DNA of 39,860 nucleotides from a virus. Positions 5,292-36,113 of the stretch are shown one piece after another. The notes beneath the pieces were generated by a model. The model saw only the letters and a program-made list of their open reading frames with translations. It ran no database searches and was not told the DNA's origin. The position numbers were made by a program, and so were the translations under genes. Location: UHGV virus genome UHGV-0224961; one strand, given 5' to 3'. The stretch's first letter is position 1. Every line of letters begins with the position of its first letter.

Positions 5292-5876
5292 TTATTGTTT
5301 GTTTTTTTCGTTCTGGTTGATGACAAATTCAATGTAACTTTCGATCTTTGCCTTCTCTGTTTCAGGTAACAATGCGTAGCGCGAGCGGTCATAGTTGATA
5401 GTCGCGGGGTCGTGCGGGTGAATCAGTAATTCATATCCGTGACGCCCAAATGCGGATGCAACATTCTCCAGGGTGGAAATGGAAACGCTGACCTCATTGT
5501 TTAACAGGCGGCTGATTGTTACCTGGGCGACGCCGGATGCGCGGTGAAGTTTTCCCTGCGTTGAAAGGTCGCGGCTTTCGCTCATCCAGCGTTCCAGGTT
5601 GTGAGCCGCCAGTTGACCAATGTCGCTTGGTCCGACAGGCTGAAAACCTTCCTGAGAAAGCGAGCGATCGATATCAAGCCAGTTACGGGGTTTATTGGCG
5701 GCAGCTTCAATTTTTCGCGCAACCTGGTCGCCGATAACCTTCTTGCCAAGAGCCCAGCGGTTTACCAGATTTGCCTGAGTTCCAAGTTTTTCAGCCATCC
5801 GCGTCTGAACACCATTGAATTCACGGTCGATCAAGTCGTTGAGATTTTGCCTGCGGACGTCCTGGATACTTTTCAT
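5292..5876 (-). CDS. CI-like repressor with two HTH-like regions and no S24 peptidase domain
   Basis: 194 aa; N-terminal XRE-type HTH (TRMAEKLGTQANLVNRWALGKK); second HTH-like segment (ASGVAQVTISRLLNNE); no G-S-M / Lys autocleavage motifs seen; flanked by operator clusters. Confidence 0.75.
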   Translation of the reverse strand: MKSIQDVRRQNLNDLIDREFNGVQTRMAEKLGTQANLVNRWALGKKVIGDQVARKIEAAANKPRNWLDIDRSLSQEGFQPVGPSDIGQLAAHNLERWMSESRDLSTQGKLHRASGVAQVTISRLLNNEVSVSISTLENVASAFGRHGYELLIHPHDPATINYDRSRYALLPETEKAKIESYIEFVINQNEKNKQ

Positions 5877-8724: not shown

Positions 8725-9153
8725 ATGGAAAGTAATATCAAAGGGTTAGTTGCCGCCGGGCATGAGATGGCTTCGGAACTGAAAGCAGAATGTGGTGCCG
8801 TTGATATGCGCAGTGTGGCAAAGCTGATCAGCGATTTGGCAACGCAACTGGAAGTGCAACTGGTGCGTGCTAATGCGCTGGCGGCGGAGAATGCAAAGCT
8901 GAAGAAGTTCTGCAAAGACGCTGCATTCGATGCCGATTACGAAGCAGAGCTAGGTATGGAGCGTGGTGGATTCAGTGATGCGCTTAACGAAATCAAAACC
9001 CCAGCCACCGATGCTTTTCTGGCTGAAGTACGGGCGCAGGGCGTGGAGATGGCTATGGAACATATGCAGTCGAGCGGTTCGTTAACATTTGGAGATTGCT
9101 ACATATCACTTAACGAGTTCGCCGCAGAGCTTCGCAAAGGAGGCAGCCAGTGA
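8725..9153 (+). CDS. Ea22-like family protein (paralog 1)
   Basis: C-terminal ATDAFLAEVRAQGV...FAAELRKGGSQ shared with the ORF at 10263. Confidence 0.55.
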   Translation: MESNIKGLVAAGHEMASELKAECGAVDMRSVAKLISDLATQLEVQLVRANALAAENAKLKKFCKDAAFDADYEAELGMERGGFSDALNEIKTPATDAFLAEVRAQGVEMAMEHMQSSGSLTFGDCYISLNEFAAELRKGGSQ

Positions 9154-13889: not shown

Positions 13890-15361
13890 CAGATGCAGCG
13901 TTATCTCCTGAAGAGCAGTTGATCGAGGATATTGCAGGGTTCACTCACGATCCGCTTGGCTATGCCCTCTATGCGTTCCCGTGGGGGGAAGAGGGGACTG
14001 AATTAGCACATGCCACCGGTCCACGTCAGTGGCAGGCTGATGCGTTCAGAGAGATACGTGATCACCTGCAGAATCCAGAGACGCGATATCAGCCGCTTAT
14101 GCTGGCACGTGCTTCTGGTCACGGTATTGGTAAATCCGCATTCATCTCAATGCTGATCAACTGGGGCATGTCCACTTGCGAGGATTGTAAGGTCGTGGTG
14201 ACCGCCAACACCGACAACCAGCTACGAACGAAGACCTGGCCGGAAATTATCAAGTGGTCGAACCTTGCTATCACGAAAGACTGGTTTACCTGTACCGCTA
14301 CCGCGATGTACAGCAATGACCCTGGGCACGACAAGCGGTGGCGAGCTGACGCAATCCCTTGGTCTGAGCACAACACTGAGGCATTCGCCGGACTACACAA
14401 CGAGCGCAAACGCATCATCGTGGTATTCGATGAGGCGTCGAACATTGCGGATCTGGTGTGGGAAGTTGCCGAGGGTGCGCTAACGGACGAAGACACTGAG
14501 ATTATCTGGGTGGCGTTCGGAAACCCGACGCGTAATACCGGACGTTTCCGCGAATGTTTCCGCAAATATAAACACCGCTGGAAAACTGCGCAGATTGACA
14601 GCCGGACGGTGGAAGGCACTAACAAACAGCAGTTGCAGAAATGGGTTGATGACTACGGGGAAGACAGCGACTTCGTTAAAATCCGTGTGCGCGGCATATT
14701 CCCGGATGCATCTGAATTGCAGTTTATCCCTACCGGACTTACTGACGAGGCAATGAAACGGGTGGTCACCGCTGCGCAGGTGGCACATGCTCCGGTGATA
14801 ATCGGCGTTGACCCGGCATACTCCGGCGTTGATGACGCTGTGATATACCTGCGGCAGGGGCTGCACAGTAAGGTGCTGTGGACTGGCAACAAGACCACTG
14901 ACGATCTGATTATGGCGAAGCGTATCGCTGACTTTGAAGACCAGTACCAGGCTGACGCGGTGTTCATCGACTTCGGTTACGGTACCGGGCTGAAGTCAAT
15001 CGGTGACGGTTGGGGGCGTACATGGCAACTTGTTCCGTTCGGTGGCGCGTCTACTGACCCGCAGATGCTAAACAAGCGCGGGGAGATGTTCAACAGCTGC
15101 AAAACGTGGCTGAAGCTGGGCGGGATGCTGGATGACCAGGAAACAGCGGACGACCTGTCGGCGGCAGAGTACAAAGTTCGCGTGGACGGTAAAATCGTTA
15201 TCGAACCGAAGGAAGATATCAAGGAGCGGCTTGGGCGTTCGCCGGGTAAAGGCGATGCGCTACTGCTGACGTTTGCTTTCCCTGTGTCTAAGCGCCTGCG
15301 AATTCCCGGGCAGCAGAACCAGCAAGGTAAGGCCATCACAGATTACGATCCCTATGCTTAA
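13886..15361 (+). CDS. Terminase large subunit
   Basis: 491 aa; Walker A-like ARASGHGIGKS; C-terminal nuclease-like domain with acidic residues; GTG start overlapping the terS stop. Confidence 0.9.
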   Translation: MTDAALSPEEQLIEDIAGFTHDPLGYALYAFPWGEEGTELAHATGPRQWQADAFREIRDHLQNPETRYQPLMLARASGHGIGKSAFISMLINWGMSTCEDCKVVVTANTDNQLRTKTWPEIIKWSNLAITKDWFTCTATAMYSNDPGHDKRWRADAIPWSEHNTEAFAGLHNERKRIIVVFDEASNIADLVWEVAEGALTDEDTEIIWVAFGNPTRNTGRFRECFRKYKHRWKTAQIDSRTVEGTNKQQLQKWVDDYGEDSDFVKIRVRGIFPDASELQFIPTGLTDEAMKRVVTAAQVAHAPVIIGVDPAYSGVDDAVIYLRQGLHSKVLWTGNKTTDDLIMAKRIADFEDQYQADAVFIDFGYGTGLKSIGDGWGRTWQLVPFGGASTDPQMLNKRGEMFNSCKTWLKLGGMLDDQETADDLSAAEYKVRVDGKIVIEPKEDIKERLGRSPGKGDALLLTFAFPVSKRLRIPGQQNQQGKAITDYDPYA

Positions 15362-15411
15362 TCCGCTGGTGGGGATAATGTCGTTGATATCCTCTGATGA
15401 GGATAAAACAA

Positions 15412-15447
15412 AGCCAGCTTATCGGCTGGCTGTTTGTGACGTGTCAC
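15412..15447 (+). terminator. Hairpin (agccagc/gctggct) followed by palindrome GTGACGTGTCAC downstream of TerL
   Basis: Weak T-run; may act as a partial terminator or protein-binding site. Confidence 0.3.
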
Positions 15448-15488
15448 GACATTAAAATCCATCGAATTCGTATTTCATGATTCACACC

Positions 15489-15514
15489 TTAAAAAAATGC
15501 CCGGCGAACCGGGC
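15489..15514 (-). terminator. Rho-independent terminator on the minus strand
   Basis: gcccgg-cgaa-ccgggc with a 7-A run on plus (U-run on minus). Confidence 0.55.
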
Positions 15515-15591
15515 GAACTGGAAGCAATGAGTTATGCCTTCCGTGGCTGTACTGGTTTACAGCATGAAGTCATCGCAATGGCGTCCTGCTG

Positions 15592-15634
15592 TAAAAAGGG
15601 CGGTGATAGTCCTTCAAGGGAAACCATCACCGCC
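15592..15634 (-). terminator. Minus-strand terminator-like hairpin about 45 nt 3' of the tRNA
   Basis: 9-bp stem ggcggtgat/atcaccgcc followed on minus by UUUUU. Confidence 0.5.
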
Positions 15635-15677
15635 AAGCCCCTGGAACTTCTGGCATCACGGTCCTTAGGCGTGATTC

Positions 15678-15754
15678 TGGCGTGGCATGCAGGATTCGAA
15701 CCTGCGACCAACCGCTTAGAAGGCGGTTGCTCTGTCCAACTGAGCTAATGCCAC
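15678..15754 (-). tRNA. tRNA-Arg (anticodon UCU), phage-encoded
   Basis: Reverse complement folds as a canonical 77-nt cloverleaf: acceptor GTGGCAT/ATGCCAC, D-stem GCTC/GAGC, anticodon stem ACCGC/GCGGT, loop CTTCTAA, T-stem GCAGG/CCTGC, TTCGAAT loop, discriminator G, CCA encoded. Confidence 0.85.
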
Positions 15755-16076
15755 AACGCTGAGAGCACTTAGCCTGTTAAGGCGCCACACTTTGTCGCGG
15801 CTCCATAAATGCTCTCATCGTTGTACCCTCGTCTCTTCCGAGGCGTCACACCGAATCGCCGGGATGGTGAATCCCCGTGCGCGGAATAAAACCGCTCGAC
15901 TTGCACATTCCGGCTACCTGGTTCGTTTGCCCGAGCAAGGGAGGGTGCCCCTTAAACGTATCCAGACCGCTATCGTCGCATGTGCCATACGCCGTACTGC
16001 TCAAAATAAAAGCTCACTCCACCTGTTCAATTTAACGACAAGCCAGTCAGGTTAGTAACTGGAATGAACTCTTTGG

Positions 16077-16143
16077 TTACCTGAAAGGTAATAATTCTCG
16101 CGTTAAATGTCAACTATCTACGATAAATAAATCATATGTGGTT
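16077..16143. promoter_or_regulatory. Perfect operator TTACC-TGAAA-GGTAA (16077-16091) plus TATCTA-N14-TATGTGGTT motif (16115-16143) upstream of the head operon
   Basis: A minus-strand TTGACA -35-like hexamer at 16108-16113 points leftward toward the tRNA. Confidence 0.5.
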
Positions 16144-16181
16144 AAATTGGTAATAATTTAATTGCGTACGGAGTCATTGAT

Positions 16182-16388
16182 ATGTGCATGGGTAGCTCAC
16201 CATCAGTGCCTGCAACACCAGAAGTTCAGGCAGCACCACAGGAGCAGGATGCCGCCGTTGTTGATGCCCGCGACGAAGAAACACGTCGCCGTCGCGCTGC
16301 TGCTGGTCGTAGTTCTACGCTGCTTACCGGTTCTCAGGGCGACACATCAACCGCTAATACCAGCGGTAAAACGCTGCTTGGTCAGTAA
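16182..16388 (+). CDS. Small hypothetical head-operon protein (68 aa)
   Basis: Preferred over the overlapping 16162 frame because the 12 nt upstream (cggagtcattga) are identical to those upstream of the portal start. Confidence 0.5.
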   Translation: MCMGSSPSVPATPEVQAAPQEQDAAVVDARDEETRRRRAAAGRSSTLLTGSQGDTSTANTSGKTLLGQ

Positions 16389-16402: not shown

Positions 16403-18082
16403 ATGGCGGAAACAACTAAAGAGCGATTGAACAAACAGTTCGCACAACTTGAAAGCGAGCGTCAGTCGTTCGAGCCGCACTGGCGCGAGTTGAGTGATTA
16501 CATCAACCCGCGTGGTTCCCGCTTTCTGACTTCTGAGGTCAACCGTAACGATCGACGCAATACACGCATTATTGATTCTACCGGTACTATGGCGGCGCGC
16601 ACTCTCGCCAGCGGCATGATGTCAGGCATCACAAGCCCCGCGCGTCCGTGGTTTCGCCTGGCTACGCCAGATCCTGAAATGATGGATTATGGCCCTGTTA
16701 AGTTGTGGCTTGAGGCGGTGCAGAACCGCATGAACGATATGTTCAATAAGTCGAATCTCTACCAGTCTCTTCCGCAGTTATACGGAAGCCTCGGCACATA
16801 CAGCACTGGTGCAATGGCGGTGCTGGAGGATGACGAGGACATCATTCGCACAATGCCATTCCCGATAGGCAGTTACTACCTGGCTAACTCACCTCGTGGC
16901 AGTGTGGACACCTGTTTTCGCAAGTTCTCTATGACTGTTCGTCAGCTTGTTCAGGAGTTCGGGCTAAATAACGTCAGCGAATCCGTAAAAAGCATGTGGG
17001 AAAGCGGCACCTACGAGAAGTGGATTGAAGTGATGCATTCGGTTTACCCGAACATTGACCGCGATACATCGAAGCTGGATAGCAAGAACAAGCCATTCAA
17101 ATCGGTTTATTACGAGGTTGGTGGCGATAACGACAAGTTGTTGCGTGAGTCCGGATTCGATGAGTTTCCAATTATGGCTCCGCGCTGGGAAGTTAACGGC
17201 GAAGATGTTTATGGATCATCATGCCCGGGTATGCTGGCGCTTGGACCTGTTAAGGCATTGCAGCTTCTCCAGAAGCGCAAGTCGCAGTTGATTGATAAAG
17301 CCACCAATCCGCCGATGGTTGCTCCGACTTCCCTCAAGAATCAGCGCGCCTCCCTTCTTCCTGGCGACATCACGTATATCGATCAGATTACTGGTCAGGA
17401 TGGTTTCAGGCCTGCTTATCTGGTTAACCCCAGTACAGCAGATCTGGTAGCAGACATTCAGGACACCCGCCAAATCATTAACAGCGCCTACTTTGTCGAT
17501 CTGTTCATGATGTTGCAGAACATCAATACCCGCTCGATGCCTGTTGAAGCGGTGATCGAAATGAAAGAAGAAAAACTTCTGATGTTGGGGCCGGTTCTGG
17601 AGCGTCTGAACGACGAATGTCTTAATCCTCTCATTGACCGCGCTTTCTCGATGATGGTGCGTAAAAACATGCTGCCGCCACCGCCTGACGCGATGGAAGG
17701 TATGCCCCTGAAGGTCGAATACATTTCTGTCATGGCTCAGGCGCAGAAGTCTATCGGCCTGTCCAGTCTGGCGTCCACGGTTAACTTCATTGGTCAACTT
17801 GCGCAAGCGAAACCAGAAGCTCTCGACAAACTCAACGTTGATCAGGCGATCGATGCATTCGCTGATATGTCCGGAGTGTCTCCAACCGTCATTGTTCCGC
17901 AGGAACAGGTTGAGCAGGCTCGCCAGCAACGGGCACAGCAACAACAGCAGCAACAAATGATGGCGATGGGGATGGCGGCGGCACAGGGTGCCAAGACGCT
18001 AAGCGAAGCTAAAACTTCGGATCCGAGTGTTTTGTCAGCTATGGCGAATGCAGTTAGTGGTCAGGGTGGGCAATCACAATGA
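16403..18082 (+). CDS. Portal protein
   Basis: 559 aa, follows TerL, precedes scaffold and capsid; Q-rich C-terminal tail. Confidence 0.8.
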   Translation: MAETTKERLNKQFAQLESERQSFEPHWRELSDYINPRGSRFLTSEVNRNDRRNTRIIDSTGTMAARTLASGMMSGITSPARPWFRLATPDPEMMDYGPVKLWLEAVQNRMNDMFNKSNLYQSLPQLYGSLGTYSTGAMAVLEDDEDIIRTMPFPIGSYYLANSPRGSVDTCFRKFSMTVRQLVQEFGLNNVSESVKSMWESGTYEKWIEVMHSVYPNIDRDTSKLDSKNKPFKSVYYEVGGDNDKLLRESGFDEFPIMAPRWEVNGEDVYGSSCPGMLALGPVKALQLLQKRKSQLIDKATNPPMVAPTSLKNQRASLLPGDITYIDQITGQDGFRPAYLVNPSTADLVADIQDTRQIINSAYFVDLFMMLQNINTRSMPVEAVIEMKEEKLLMLGPVLERLNDECLNPLIDRAFSMMVRKNMLPPPPDAMEGMPLKVEYISVMAQAQKSIGLSSLASTVNFIGQLAQAKPEALDKLNVDQAIDAFADMSGVSPTVIVPQEQVEQARQQRAQQQQQQQMMAMGMAAAQGAKTLSEAKTSDPSVLSAMANAVSGQGGQSQ

Positions 18083-33137: not shown

Positions 33138-36113
33138 ATGACGGTCTCAACCGAAGTTGACCACAACGAATACACAGGTAACGGCGTTACGACATCATTT
33201 CCGTATACCTTTAGGGTTTTCAAGGAATCTGATCTGGCAGTACAGGTGGTTGACCTTGACGAAAATATCGCTGTGCTGGCTCTTGATACTGATTACACTG
33301 TCACTGGGGCTGGTGGATATAATGGCGGTAATGTAATTCTGTCGAAGGCGTTAGCTAACGGTTATCAGATTTCTATATCACGAGAGCTACCGGTTACGCA
33401 GGAAACTGATCTGCGAAATCAGGGAAAGTTTTTCGCTGAGGTGCATGAAGACGCGTTAGATAAGCTGACGATGCTGATACAGCAAGTCCGCAGTTGGTTT
33501 AGCCTGGCGCTGCGCAAACCATCATTTGTGGCAAACTATTACGATGCTTTGAATAATTACATCCGTAATTTGCGCGATCCTTCCAAGCCTCAAGATGCAG
33601 CTACAAAGAATTATGTTGATAATATTGTTAATGTGAATATTAACAGGACATTACGGGTTCCAGATAATTTTATTGAACCACTTCCTCCAGTTCATTTACT
33701 GGAAGAAACTGTCATTGGTATCGTCAATGGTAAACCTATAGGTGTACCTGTGCCTTCTGGCAGTGCCGCAGATGTTCTTCTGCAATTATCTAGCGCAGGA
33801 GAAGGAAAAGGTGATGCATTAATTGGTGTAAGGCAGCCATTTGCCGGGGCTGTAACTATAACTCAGCATGAAAACAATGCTCTTTTCTTAAATGTAAAAC
33901 AATTCGGAGCAATTGGGGATGGGAAATATCATCCATTATCTGAGAGGTTTTCTTCAATTTCTGAAGCAAAATCCTTATATCCTTTTGTTGACTCATTATC
34001 TCAGTCAATAGACTGGGCCGCGTGGCAAGCTGCCATTAACACAGGAAAGGTTATTTATGGTACTGATAATGCGTATGTAATAACGGATACGTTAACACCT
34101 GTTTCTGGTGGTGGGATAATTGGTCTTGGTGTGGGCAAATGGGTCTCTGGATATACTGCAACATTTGCTCCTGATATTACCACAGGGACCACATTCCTGA
34201 TGTACGGTGTAGGAAATAAAAAATATACTGTAGATTGTGTTTCTAATATGGATGTTAGTGGTGGTGTGGTTTCTAATCCATCTTCCGAAGACCCGTATAC
34301 AACAACGGCACCTGCGTCATCATATGATTTATTGGATTTTACTAACGGTGATGCTAATGGGGCTACAAGAGCCACGCTTAAACCATTCTCTGCCGCAATA
34401 TTGATGCCAGAGACAGGATGTGTTCGCCTTGAGAACTTTCGTATTGTTCCATATTTCAATGGGCTGGATGGTTATAAAGACATTGCAAATACCGGTCTTG
34501 GCGATGAGTGGGATGTAGGTATTTGGTCACGTGCGTCTTTTGGCAATGAATACCGCAATTTGCAGGTGGTTGGATACTGGCGCAAGACGGCACTTTTAAA
34601 AACGAACATTCCTGTATCTGGCACGCTGGCCGCTCAGGGCGAGGATGAAAACTATTATCACTGTAGATTCCAGGGATTCAAGGGTGTTTCGATCCGCGCC
34701 CATGATGTATTCCGAATTACAGCGGTAACGTCCAGCACTATCGAAATCCCATGGTCATCAAGCCACACCTTCGAAACGTCCGGGGTTTTAAGATCGGGAG
34801 GCAGGAATTTCACTTATTCAGGATTATCCGTATCCGGTGATAAGTTAGTATTTACTGGAGTGTCTAACGCTTCTGAGGCAACAGTAGGTTCTACTATACG
34901 GCGAAATGACATAGATAACTTTGGTATGGCGGGAACGCAATTTTTCGATTGCTACATTACCAGCCTGTATCACCACACACATCTGCTTGCCACATCGCAA
35001 TACCTGTCTCAGCCATTCAGCCGGCCATCAGAGTGTATGGAGGTTTCAGGGGAACCAGTTCGCGGTGTACAGGTACATGCGGGAACCATTCAGGGATGGG
35101 ATGATGTTCTTATTCATCTGCATGACTGTGGAAATATGAACTTTTACAGTACATATTTCGAAAGCCAGCAAGCATATGTAACTATAAATGGTGGTAATGC
35201 TATTGGTTATGGAGCACGTATGATAGCTTCCCGGCAATCAACAAGCTCATTACCATATGCAGCAGGGAATACTCGAGTGCTTAGAATGGTCGGGTGCTCT
35301 GAAGGCAATGGCGTTGACTGGGGTCCTGTATTTAACAACTATACAGGAGGAAGATATAATTCTGGAGACGGTGTATTTAACCCCCGCGATGCATTTATAG
35401 ACCATAAATCTCTTCCTGAGCAGTCAGGAGGTGAGTCAAGACTCGTATCACAAAAAGGAAATGCCAGAGTAGTATGTGGTGTTGGTAAAACTGTACTGCT
35501 TGGACCAACGTCAGGAGATTGTAATTTACAGAGCAATACTGGAAGTTTAAATATTAGAAGTGGGATAAGAGTAAGAATCGGTCACGCTGATGGAACAGAC
35601 TGGTGGTTGGCAGATGCTAATAAAATAGCTCCTGTTGATGATAATGTTAAAGCTATTGGACAGCCATCAAACAGATGCTCTGTTATCTATGCAGGAACCG
35701 GGTCAATCAATACGTCAGATGAAACTCTTAAAACAAGATATGATATTCTTAATGCAGAGCGTAATGCCGCTATTGAAATAAAGTCAGTCATCTATAAATT
35801 TAAATTTAATGACTCAATTAATCACAAAGGAATTGAGTCGTCCAGGTATCATTTTGGCGTTGGCGCTCAAACCGTAGGGGATATTCTTAGAAAGCATGGT
35901 TTAAACCCTGAGCAATATGCTTTTTGGTGTTACGATGAATGGCCTGACGTATGGGATGAAGAGGTGATAACTGAAGAGAGCACAGATCCTGATACAGGTG
36001 AGAAAATTTATTCTCAATATAAAACAGGAGATATGATTCTTGTAAAAAAAGCAGGAGGACGCTACGGAATTCGTTATGACGAATTAGCCATGTTTATATT
36101 AATGTCAATGTAA
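33138..36113 (+). CDS. Tailspike with C-terminal intramolecular chaperone-like domain
   Basis: 991 aa; central region likely beta-helix (FGAIGDGKYHP); C-terminal region resembles S74-type self-cleaving chaperone domains of tail fibres as recalled; AT-rich from about 33500 onward. Confidence 0.8.
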   Translation: MTVSTEVDHNEYTGNGVTTSFPYTFRVFKESDLAVQVVDLDENIAVLALDTDYTVTGAGGYNGGNVILSKALANGYQISISRELPVTQETDLRNQGKFFAEVHEDALDKLTMLIQQVRSWFSLALRKPSFVANYYDALNNYIRNLRDPSKPQDAATKNYVDNIVNVNINRTLRVPDNFIEPLPPVHLLEETVIGIVNGKPIGVPVPSGSAADVLLQLSSAGEGKGDALIGVRQPFAGAVTITQHENNALFLNVKQFGAIGDGKYHPLSERFSSISEAKSLYPFVDSLSQSIDWAAWQAAINTGKVIYGTDNAYVITDTLTPVSGGGIIGLGVGKWVSGYTATFAPDITTGTTFLMYGVGNKKYTVDCVSNMDVSGGVVSNPSSEDPYTTTAPASSYDLLDFTNGDANGATRATLKPFSAAILMPETGCVRLENFRIVPYFNGLDGYKDIANTGLGDEWDVGIWSRASFGNEYRNLQVVGYWRKTALLKTNIPVSGTLAAQGEDENYYHCRFQGFKGVSIRAHDVFRITAVTSSTIEIPWSSSHTFETSGVLRSGGRNFTYSGLSVSGDKLVFTGVSNASEATVGSTIRRNDIDNFGMAGTQFFDCYITSLYHHTHLLATSQYLSQPFSRPSECMEVSGEPVRGVQVHAGTIQGWDDVLIHLHDCGNMNFYSTYFESQQAYVTINGGNAIGYGARMIASRQSTSSLPYAAGNTRVLRMVGCSEGNGVDWGPVFNNYTGGRYNSGDGVFNPRDAFIDHKSLPEQSGGESRLVSQKGNARVVCGVGKTVLLGPTSGDCNLQSNTGSLNIRSGIRVRIGHADGTDWWLADANKIAPVDDNVKAIGQPSNRCSVIYAGTGSINTSDETLKTRYDILNAERNAAIEIKSVIYKFKFNDSINHKGIESSRYHFGVGAQTVGDILRKHGLNPEQYAFWCYDEWPDVWDEEVITEESTDPDTGEKIYSQYKTGDMILVKKAGGRYGIRYDELAMFILMSM

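Follow-up and report, generated by a model that had tools for sequence, protein, structure and literature searches.

We identified a conserved structured RNA on the minus strand of the virus genome UHGV-0224961, a podophage of the phiV10/epsilon15 type (genus Uetakevirus) whose 39,860 nucleotides are the whole stretch analyzed here (the window). The RNA occupies positions 15996-15755 (~245 nt) of a non-coding island between the terminase and portal genes, and its 3' end coincides with the 5' end of a tRNA-Arg(UCU). An original prediction, made from the sequence, described the island as a tRNA-bearing moron inserted into a late operon, which left the ~400 bp upstream of the tRNA as implied spacer. 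This region is instead a conserved, covarying structured RNA common to lambdoid and P1-like phages. The RNA is a real, minus-strand, non-coding and mobile module and, as far as can be told, an undescribed family in a known functional niche. The island is best explained as a leftward early transcription unit under repressor control, and we tentatively propose that the RNA is a cis-acting early-leader RNA that would give read-through of terminators and untranslated RNA genes.

A BLAST search with positions 15755-16160 identified the RNA in several types of phage. Positions 15755-15995 are ~83% identical to the lambdoid phages mEp460, cdtI, 2H10, Stx2c and some Stx2a phages, 15833-15995 are ~80% identical to P1, P7, D6 and SJ46, and the core at 15808-15920 is ~75% identical to Klebsiella phage SopranoGao, Stenotrophomonas phages BUCT708 and BUCT709, and mEp390. 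The homology to mEp460 ends at 15755, the exact boundary of the tRNA, and picks up again at the first terminator beyond it. The island as a whole is 97-98% identical to those of phiv142-3, phiV10, ZX5 and the O157 typing phages 9 and 10. An exact-match scan of IMG/VR with a 19-nucleotide segment of the RNA (the 19-mer described below) returned at least 120 matches. The GTDB species representatives contain 24 loci, all from Enterobacterales except for two metagenome-assembled genome (MAG) bins labelled Oscillospiraceae/Bacillota, of which one (L153) holds a full-length copy scoring 170 bits and the other (L141) a 12-bit fragment. Since every other genome locus belongs to Enterobacterales, these two bins are probably mis-binned enterobacterial phage contigs. 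The RNA is 100% identical to a stretch in one E. coli chromosome, and the stretch is present in 1064 of 5426 complete E. coli genomes (1241 places, 276 of them on plasmids); among the 25 matches listed, none has annotation under it.

Each phage carries a single copy. Most of the BLAST-matched records have no feature over the element, and a few have hypothetical open reading frames (ORFs). Two hypothetical proteins annotated on the opposite strand, mEp460_037 (L003 2934-3302) over the structured RNA and PhiV10p04 (L001 2672-2923) over the tRNA-Arg, are probably spurious gene calls over RNA genes. The RNA is absent from the K-12 cryptic prophage CPS-53, which has homologous yfdP-yfdQ early-left genes, and this absence may explain why it has not been reported from K-12 transcriptomics.

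The RNA folds into five nested helices, a pseudoknot and a helix that closes its 3' domain, and in the minus-strand alignment conserved blocks are split by hairpins of variable sequence. The core (15819-15996, minus strand, as are all elements of the fold) is supported by a covariance model (R1) and by covariation in two alignments (A4 and A6). It begins with a local hairpin, H1 (15994-15974), followed by H2 (15966-15963 with 15920-15917), which encloses a variable arm with its own helix. The 3' strand of H2 runs into an invariant 19-mer, GGUAGCCGGAAUGUGCAAG (15918-15900), that is unchanged in all eight BLAST-retrieved homologues keeping the element and is exact or 1-5 substitutions off in 55 of the 68 testable loci retrieved with a second anchor. 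The variable H3 (~15898-15877) and H4 (15875-15861) follow, and the loop of H4 (15869-15866) pairs with a downstream GGUG (15852-15849) to form the pseudoknot. H5 (15843-15827) is a 5-bp hairpin with the loop GAAGAGA. The 3' domain (15755-15823) is a long hairpin in which GAGAGCA (15816-15810) closes with UGCUCUC (15767-15761). This closing helix (H6) is present in most of 87 unique sequences and has the compensatory variants AAGAGCA/UGCUCUU, GAGCGCAC/GUGCGCUC and GAGAGUA/UACUCUC.

Covariation was scored in an alignment of 27 representatives <94% identical (A4) and in an independent set of 72 loci retrieved by a different anchor in H5 (A6); as controls, the 3' partners were slid by 1-3 columns and 500 shuffles were made. 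In A4, 93.5% of the cells are paired compared with 30-49% when the partners are slid, and 16 of the 30 pairs are changed on both sides. The covariation score is 0.387 versus 0.166 in the shuffles, none of which (0/500) reaches the observed value. The pseudoknot covaries as well, with CACC:GGUG exchanging with AACC:GGUU. The independent set replicates this result (95.7% paired; score 0.369 versus 0.151; 0/500 shuffles reaching the observed value) and contains three doubly changed pairs in H1. The covariance model R1, built from A4, scores the window at 141 bits (E 1.4e-37).

The orientation of the RNA is clear from the alignment and from its neighbors. G-U pairs make up ~13% of the paired cells in A4 and would be A-C mismatches on the plus strand, so the RNA is read on the minus strand. 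Adjacent tRNAs share the strand of the RNA in 46 of 46 cases (29 tRNA-Arg on its 3' side and 17 tRNA-Ile/Met(CAU) on its 5' side), as do adjacent cI-like genes in 66 of 66. Protein coding is ruled out for the element: no reading frame is open through all homologues, and arm lengths differ by non-multiples of three. The island was originally described as ~800 bp with no convincing ORF, which agrees with our analysis. The non-coding stretch extends from the terminase stop at 15361 to 16181, and contains only mechanical ORFs (15497-15748 and 15792-16055, both on the plus strand) that overlap the tRNA and the structured RNA and of which no frame is kept among homologues.

It is very improbable that the island is a plain tRNA moron, transcribed from its own promoter to its own terminators, with non-functional spacer making up the rest. 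The tRNA and the terminators are real and use of the AGA codon is raised. However, the supposed spacer is 70-83% identical in unrelated phage types, with compensatory base changes, and most loci of the RNA have no tRNA. Covariation and distribution both contradict a reading of this region as spacer.

The AT-rich region upstream of the RNA in the window contains a perfect palindrome, TTACCTGAAAGGTAA (16077-16091), which is a putative prophage-repressor operator. The pattern TTACCT-N3-AGGTAA, with at most two mismatches, occurs 14 times in the window versus 0.79 expected. Copies of the palindrome (TTACC-N5-GGTAA) cluster on both sides of a helix-turn-helix gene of the Cro/C1 type at 5292-5876 (minus strand) and stand upstream of several operons (positions 136, 5158, 5220, 5932, 5980, 6141, 8239, 8301, 13261, 16077, 33019 and others). 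The set probably represents the repressor operators of this phage, and the epsilon15 record annotates the homologous palindrome site as repressor binding. A candidate leftward promoter at 16085-16113 (minus strand; TTGACA at 16113-16108, 17-nt spacer, TACCTT at 16090-16085) falls below the scan threshold and was read from the sequence; its -10 element overlaps the operator. A second candidate at 16003-16030 (minus strand; TTGAAC at 16030-16025, 16-nt spacer, TATTTT at 16008-16003), recognized in the same way, would start transcription ~2 nt before H1.

Given a perfect repressor operator in the promoter region, the unit looks like a repressor-controlled early unit rather than an autonomous moron. 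It would comprise, in order, the operator and promoter, the ~245-nt leader RNA, tRNA-Arg(UCU), two or three intrinsic terminators, and an emptied accessory-gene slot. The moron interpretation holds insofar as the island contains its own leftward unit, with terminators, antisense to the packaging and head genes. However, the unit is not a private insertion, and its promoter is a predicted one that bears a repressor operator. The unit is present in most Uetakeviruses, the order of RNA, tRNA and terminator is common to those of E. coli, Klebsiella and Salmonella, and alignment with relatives indicates that only the downstream gene slot varies.

A similar context is found in the other phages. A cI/LexA-type repressor gene lies 80-200 nt upstream on the same strand in 66 of 130 loci, and in lambdoids the early-left genes lie downstream. 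In mEp460 the interval from cI to the RNA contains, besides the cI terminator and a PL-like promoter, two palindromes that match the OR operators, and the RNA begins at approximately +45 of the predicted PL transcript. A strong terminator follows ~70 nt after the RNA, and the first gene is ~120 nt further on; the protein it encodes (mEp460_035/YfdP type) has no arginine-rich N-like motif and no Pfam match. In P1 the RNA is located 15 nt after trnI and just before ban, within the C1-controlled ban operon. Thus, in all three phage types (lambdoid, P1 and the window) the RNA is in an operon under the primary prophage repressor, at or close to its start. Among 101 non-redundant loci, 75 have an intrinsic terminator on the sense strand within 500 nt after H5, mostly ~220 nt away. 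The antisense strand has one in 31 of these 101 loci, and a control segment lying 1.5 kb beyond has one in 19 of 83. The terminator comes before the first early-left gene in lambdoids and before p03 in epsilon15 and phiV10.

The layout of promoter, RNA, terminator and early gene, the lack of an N gene, and the fact that the carrier phages share no proteins lead us to propose a cis-acting read-through RNA that uses host machinery. The RNA would act in cis, with the transcribing RNA polymerase or else Rho or Nus factors as its target, and the result would be processive read-through past the terminators and untranslated RNA genes that follow. It would be a functional analogue of lambda nutL or HK022 putL where the phage has no N gene at that position.

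The closest parallel is with HK022 putL and putR and the putL-like RNA of HK639, which are likewise cis-encoded structured RNAs just past a repressor-controlled early promoter in an N-less lambdoid, with terminators to be read through downstream and no evident need for a phage protein. The location of the RNA is that of a put-like leader in mEp460 (operators and PL-like promoter ~45 nt upstream), in the 66 of 130 loci where it follows cI, and in the window (operator at 16077-16091). The put RNA suppresses downstream terminators without added factors by binding the zinc-binding domain of the RNA polymerase beta-prime subunit, and the RNA described here might act similarly; sense-strand terminators are ~3-fold enriched downstream of it. 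The put RNA is ~70 nt long and forms two stems in a V shape (PMC9378689), whereas the RNA described here has a core of 160-185 nt, a 3' domain of 70-110 nt and a pseudoknot, and has no copy in the right operon.

The RNA shares its PL-leader position with lambda nut, which consists of boxA and boxB and operates with N and Nus factors, and the purine loop of H5 starts with GAAGA, as presumably does the boxB loop of lambda nutL. However, the H5 loop has seven nucleotides instead of five, H5 is part of a far larger conserved fold, and the element also occurs in P1-like phages and Uetakeviruses. The immunity RNAs of phages (c4 of P1 and P7, and the CI RNA of P4) are also early phage RNAs derived from leaders in a repressor-linked context, and processing of c4 and CI RNA involves RNase P. 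However, no antisense target is evident for the RNA described here, and the Rfam C4 model does not match it, although the model does match a C4/isrK pair elsewhere in mEp460. That isrK and C4 antisense RNA pair (L003 5351-5539; 67 and 84 bits with the Rfam models) is located within the annotated Rha regulatory protein region and seems to be a c4/ant module resembling P1 immI, here in a lambdoid phage.

Several observations weigh against a cis-acting antiterminator. The window copy's own folding energy is ordinary (z = -1.59), so the case for structure rests on covariation. Membership in the HK022 put family is ruled out by the lack of sequence or covariance-model similarity: the nhmmer profile of the element matches HK022 only at a chance 16-mer inside nun, and R1 finds no match in HK022 or in HK639, where the putL-like RNA is annotated at 34187-34312. 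A string in common with putL, ACGGCG...CAUGCGUCG, was rejected because it is absent from putR and at odds with the published put pairing. Neither the boxA nor the N of a lambda nut system is present: no boxA was found on the sense strand in the alignments read, where a boxA-like TGCTCT occurs only as one strand of H6, and no N-like arginine-rich protein is encoded downstream. In copies of the P1 type, ban follows the RNA with no intervening terminator, and in the window nothing useful is left beyond the terminators. The stem of the first terminator is unusually long, and long terminator stems are reportedly tied to resistance to antitermination; this terminator could simply close a discrete RNA gene. 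Promoter use, the ends of the RNA and read-through are all predicted from sequence. Finally, epsilon15 retains only H1 and part of H2 (L005 2618-2723), a 34-bit remnant joined to the sequence that follows the first terminator. The deletion extends from the middle of the RNA to past that terminator and includes the tRNA. Because epsilon15 survives the loss of most of the RNA, phages of this type can dispense with the element.

Shortened copies in other phages sit in the same PL-leader position as the full RNAs. Three of these (L161, at 8821-8900, L177 and L212) retain only model positions 74-154, the 3' half, and a fourth (L168, at 616-648) retains only GGUGUGAC and H5, ~25 nt past a promoter and with a cI-like gene immediately upstream. 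Since natural truncated copies keep H5 with its 5' flank, this suggests that H5 and the 5' flank are the minimal functional module.

The main rival to a cis-acting leader is a discrete, stable, trans-acting non-coding RNA (a small RNA (sRNA), sponge or protein-binding decoy) made early after derepression, which we consider unlikely. Its 3' end would be generated by RNase P where the tRNA follows and by the terminator in phages that lack the tRNA, and the 19-mer would be a recognition surface. The conservation of the 19-mer among both the BLAST homologues (8/8) and the second-anchor loci (55/68), a strong terminator after the RNA in 74% of loci, the exact boundary with the tRNA and the single copy per phage are all in line with such an RNA, and carrier phages with no proteins in common imply a host target. 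However, no target has been identified, and the length and multi-helix, pseudoknotted fold are unlike those of typical Hfq-dependent sRNAs. In lambdoids the RNA is within the sole plausible early-left leader, so transcription must run past it, and the P1 copies have no terminator of their own. In addition, the truncated copies keep H5 only and not the 19-mer.

A riboswitch-like sensor of a small molecule or of a host or phage protein, gating the early operon and possibly anti-defence genes within it, has a low probability. The complex conserved fold, with its pseudoknot and invariant junctions, would suit a sensor, as would the terminator downstream and the Tad2-like or gp49_66 gene found in the accessory slot of relatives (see below). 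RNAalifold also proposed a long-range pairing of the 19-mer with the H1 region (A4 columns 7-31 with 99-115, corresponding to window positions 15993-15969 with 15918-15898) that has 14 potential pairs, is 98.7% paired, and suggests two conformers. We rejected this pairing as part of the structure because it shows no covariation and is contradicted by variants of H1 such as CGCUGUAU..AUGCAGCG, which break its outer helices. It may be a transient or tertiary contact, and a 4-bp contact of the H1 loop (GCAC) with GUGC is possible. Moreover, the terminator is at a distance of 70-200 nt, and a variable domain or an entire tRNA intervenes, which leaves no overlapping expression platform. A comparison of the window and mEp460 by eye revealed no consistent pairing of H4 with the terminator that would form an anti-terminator, and the downstream genes are heterogeneous.

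Equally improbable is an RNA-processing or stability module that protects a 5' end or directs cleavage by an RNase in maturation of the tRNA or mRNA. A tRNA adjoins the RNA in 46 of 130 loci, either tRNA-Arg on its 3' side or tRNA-Ile/Met(CAU) on its 5' side, and the epsilon15 record places an RNase III site in the vicinity (2720-2819, on the strand of the RNA, directly upstream of the remnant). However, the other 84 loci have no nearby tRNA, and a pseudoknot and invariant single strands exceed what a stabilizing hairpin needs.

No family in Rfam 15 accounts for the element. A search of the window identified only the tRNA at E values up to 1, and in six other loci nothing over the element at E values up to 0.05. 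T-box, CsrA-sponge and Y-RNA identities were rejected, having no sequence support and no Rfam match. The sRNAs AgvB, AsxR, Esr41, STnc100 and Pas were likewise set aside, being located in other prophage regions; the Rfam models for the first four have no match over the element, and a weak STnc100-like match lies elsewhere in the P1 locus. A sub-threshold RprA-like match 3' of the element in BUCT708 (L008 2355-2474; 50 bits versus a gathering score of 70), over the 3' domain and terminator, was judged spurious. The GGTAGC within the 19-mer recalls the RfaH ops site, the consensus of which is GGCGGTAGnnTG. We regard this as a coincidence, as the bases before GGTAGC are the covarying 3' strand of H2. 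A full-text search with a 15-mer from the 19-mer, in both orientations and as DNA and RNA, returned no paper within the searchable literature, and a search of the literature on put-like or N-independent leader RNAs found nothing relevant.

The two minus-strand terminators originally predicted after the tRNA were confirmed, with coordinates correct to within a few bases. A scan of the minus strand places terminators at 15634-15599, 15514-15499 and 15431-15412, with four sites in 1.3 kb versus 1.4 expected. Terminator 1 (15590-15634, minus strand; 15634-15599 in the scan) has a 14-pair stem, GGCGGTGATGG...CTATCACCGCC, and a U-run (CTTTTT), and its hairpin, with compensatory changes, also follows the RNA in mEp460, which has no tRNA there. 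Terminator 2 (15489-15514, minus strand) consists of GCCCGGTTCGCCGGGC and T7 (15514-15499 plus ATTTTTTT in the scan) and is kept in phiV10, phiv142-3 and epsilon15. The interval between the two (15515-15598, minus strand; CAGCAGGACGCCAUUGCGAUGACUUCAUGCUG...) has a hairpin of its own and is kept in phiV10, the Klebsiella relative described below and epsilon15. A hairpin at 15405-15431 (AGCCAGC..GCTGGCT), annotated as a terminator in phiV10, is a two-way terminator, serving the terminase operon and the leftward unit alike.

Between terminator 2 and the two-way hairpin is an accessory-gene slot (15432-15488, minus strand; alignment A5). In the window and phiv142-3 the slot is ~60 bp with an 8-codon ORF (15478-15452 in the window) and no gene. 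In phiV10 (L001 2278-2649) and epsilon15 it is occupied by p03, a member of Pfam family PF13876 (Phage_gp49_66; the N4 Gp49/Sf6 gene 66 family), and in Klebsiella phage ST512-KPC3phi13.3 (L010 1635-2156) by a Tad2-like (Thoeris anti-defence 2-like) gene, PF11195. The finding originally said to count against the moron interpretation, a protein-coding gene in the island of related phages that is disrupted in this copy, is therefore borne out in part, for the slot. The window has lost a downstream accessory gene that its relatives hold, and the slot may be a site for anti-defence cargo. On the other side of the island, a small conserved ORF at 16182-16388 (a homologue of epsilon15 gp3, phrog_831) precedes the portal gene, which starts at 16403.

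The tRNA-Arg(UCU) was correctly called from the sequence at 15678-15754 on the minus strand, with its CCA encoded. ARAGORN accepts the cloverleaf, reports its anticodon as tct at position 35 and finds no other tRNA in the window, and the Rfam tRNA model RF00005 scores it at 73.3 bits (E ~1e-15), well above the gathering score of 29. It is already annotated in phiv142-3, the O157 typing phages 9 and 10, and SPN9TCW, and is a genuine but known, ordinary feature of the phage group. One tRNA has been reported in ZX5 (PMC9782041). The ORFs of the window use AGA at 7.1 per 1000 codons (11.5% of arginine codons), chiefly in tail, tailspike and early genes; the genes from portal to major capsid contain none. 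In E. coli AGA is used at ~2 per 1000 codons. AGA is thus used at ~3 times the E. coli average, and a role for the tRNA as a codon supplement is reasonable; it would add capacity to decode a codon ~3 times commoner in the phage than in the host. As a reader of the rare AGA codon in a phage that uses AGA more than its host, it does not differ from other phage-borne rare-codon tRNAs, such as P1 trnI and the ileZ-argN-argO cluster of Stx phages. The tRNA would be a passenger set between the leader RNA and the leader's terminator, and RNase P cleavage at its 5' end would also free the 3' end of the leader RNA.

Whatever its mechanism, this phage RNA is large and pseudoknotted, covaries strongly and lacks a database entry, and the annotation of the hypothetical ORFs PhiV10p04 and mEp460_037, which overlie RNA genes, is corrected. 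The RNA is present in approximately one fifth of complete E. coli genomes; its carriers include P1-type plasmid prophages and Stx2-converting phages. We know of no phage RNA outside the HK022 put family that modifies RNA polymerase without a protein partner. The cryo-EM study of put aligned ten put sequences only (PMC9378689). Since the RNA occupies the nutL/putL position in N-less lambdoids, it is a testable candidate for a second and far more widespread RNA route to early antitermination. With greater reserve than we attach to read-through itself, and more doubt than belief, we suggest that it might found a new class of RNA-only processive antiterminators or elongation-complex modifiers, mobile among the temperate phages of Enterobacterales (lambdoid, P1-like and Uetakevirus) and replacing N/nut. 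If this were true, an RNA-only antiterminator would drive whatever follows it, be it a tRNA or an anti-defence gene of the Tad2-like kind.

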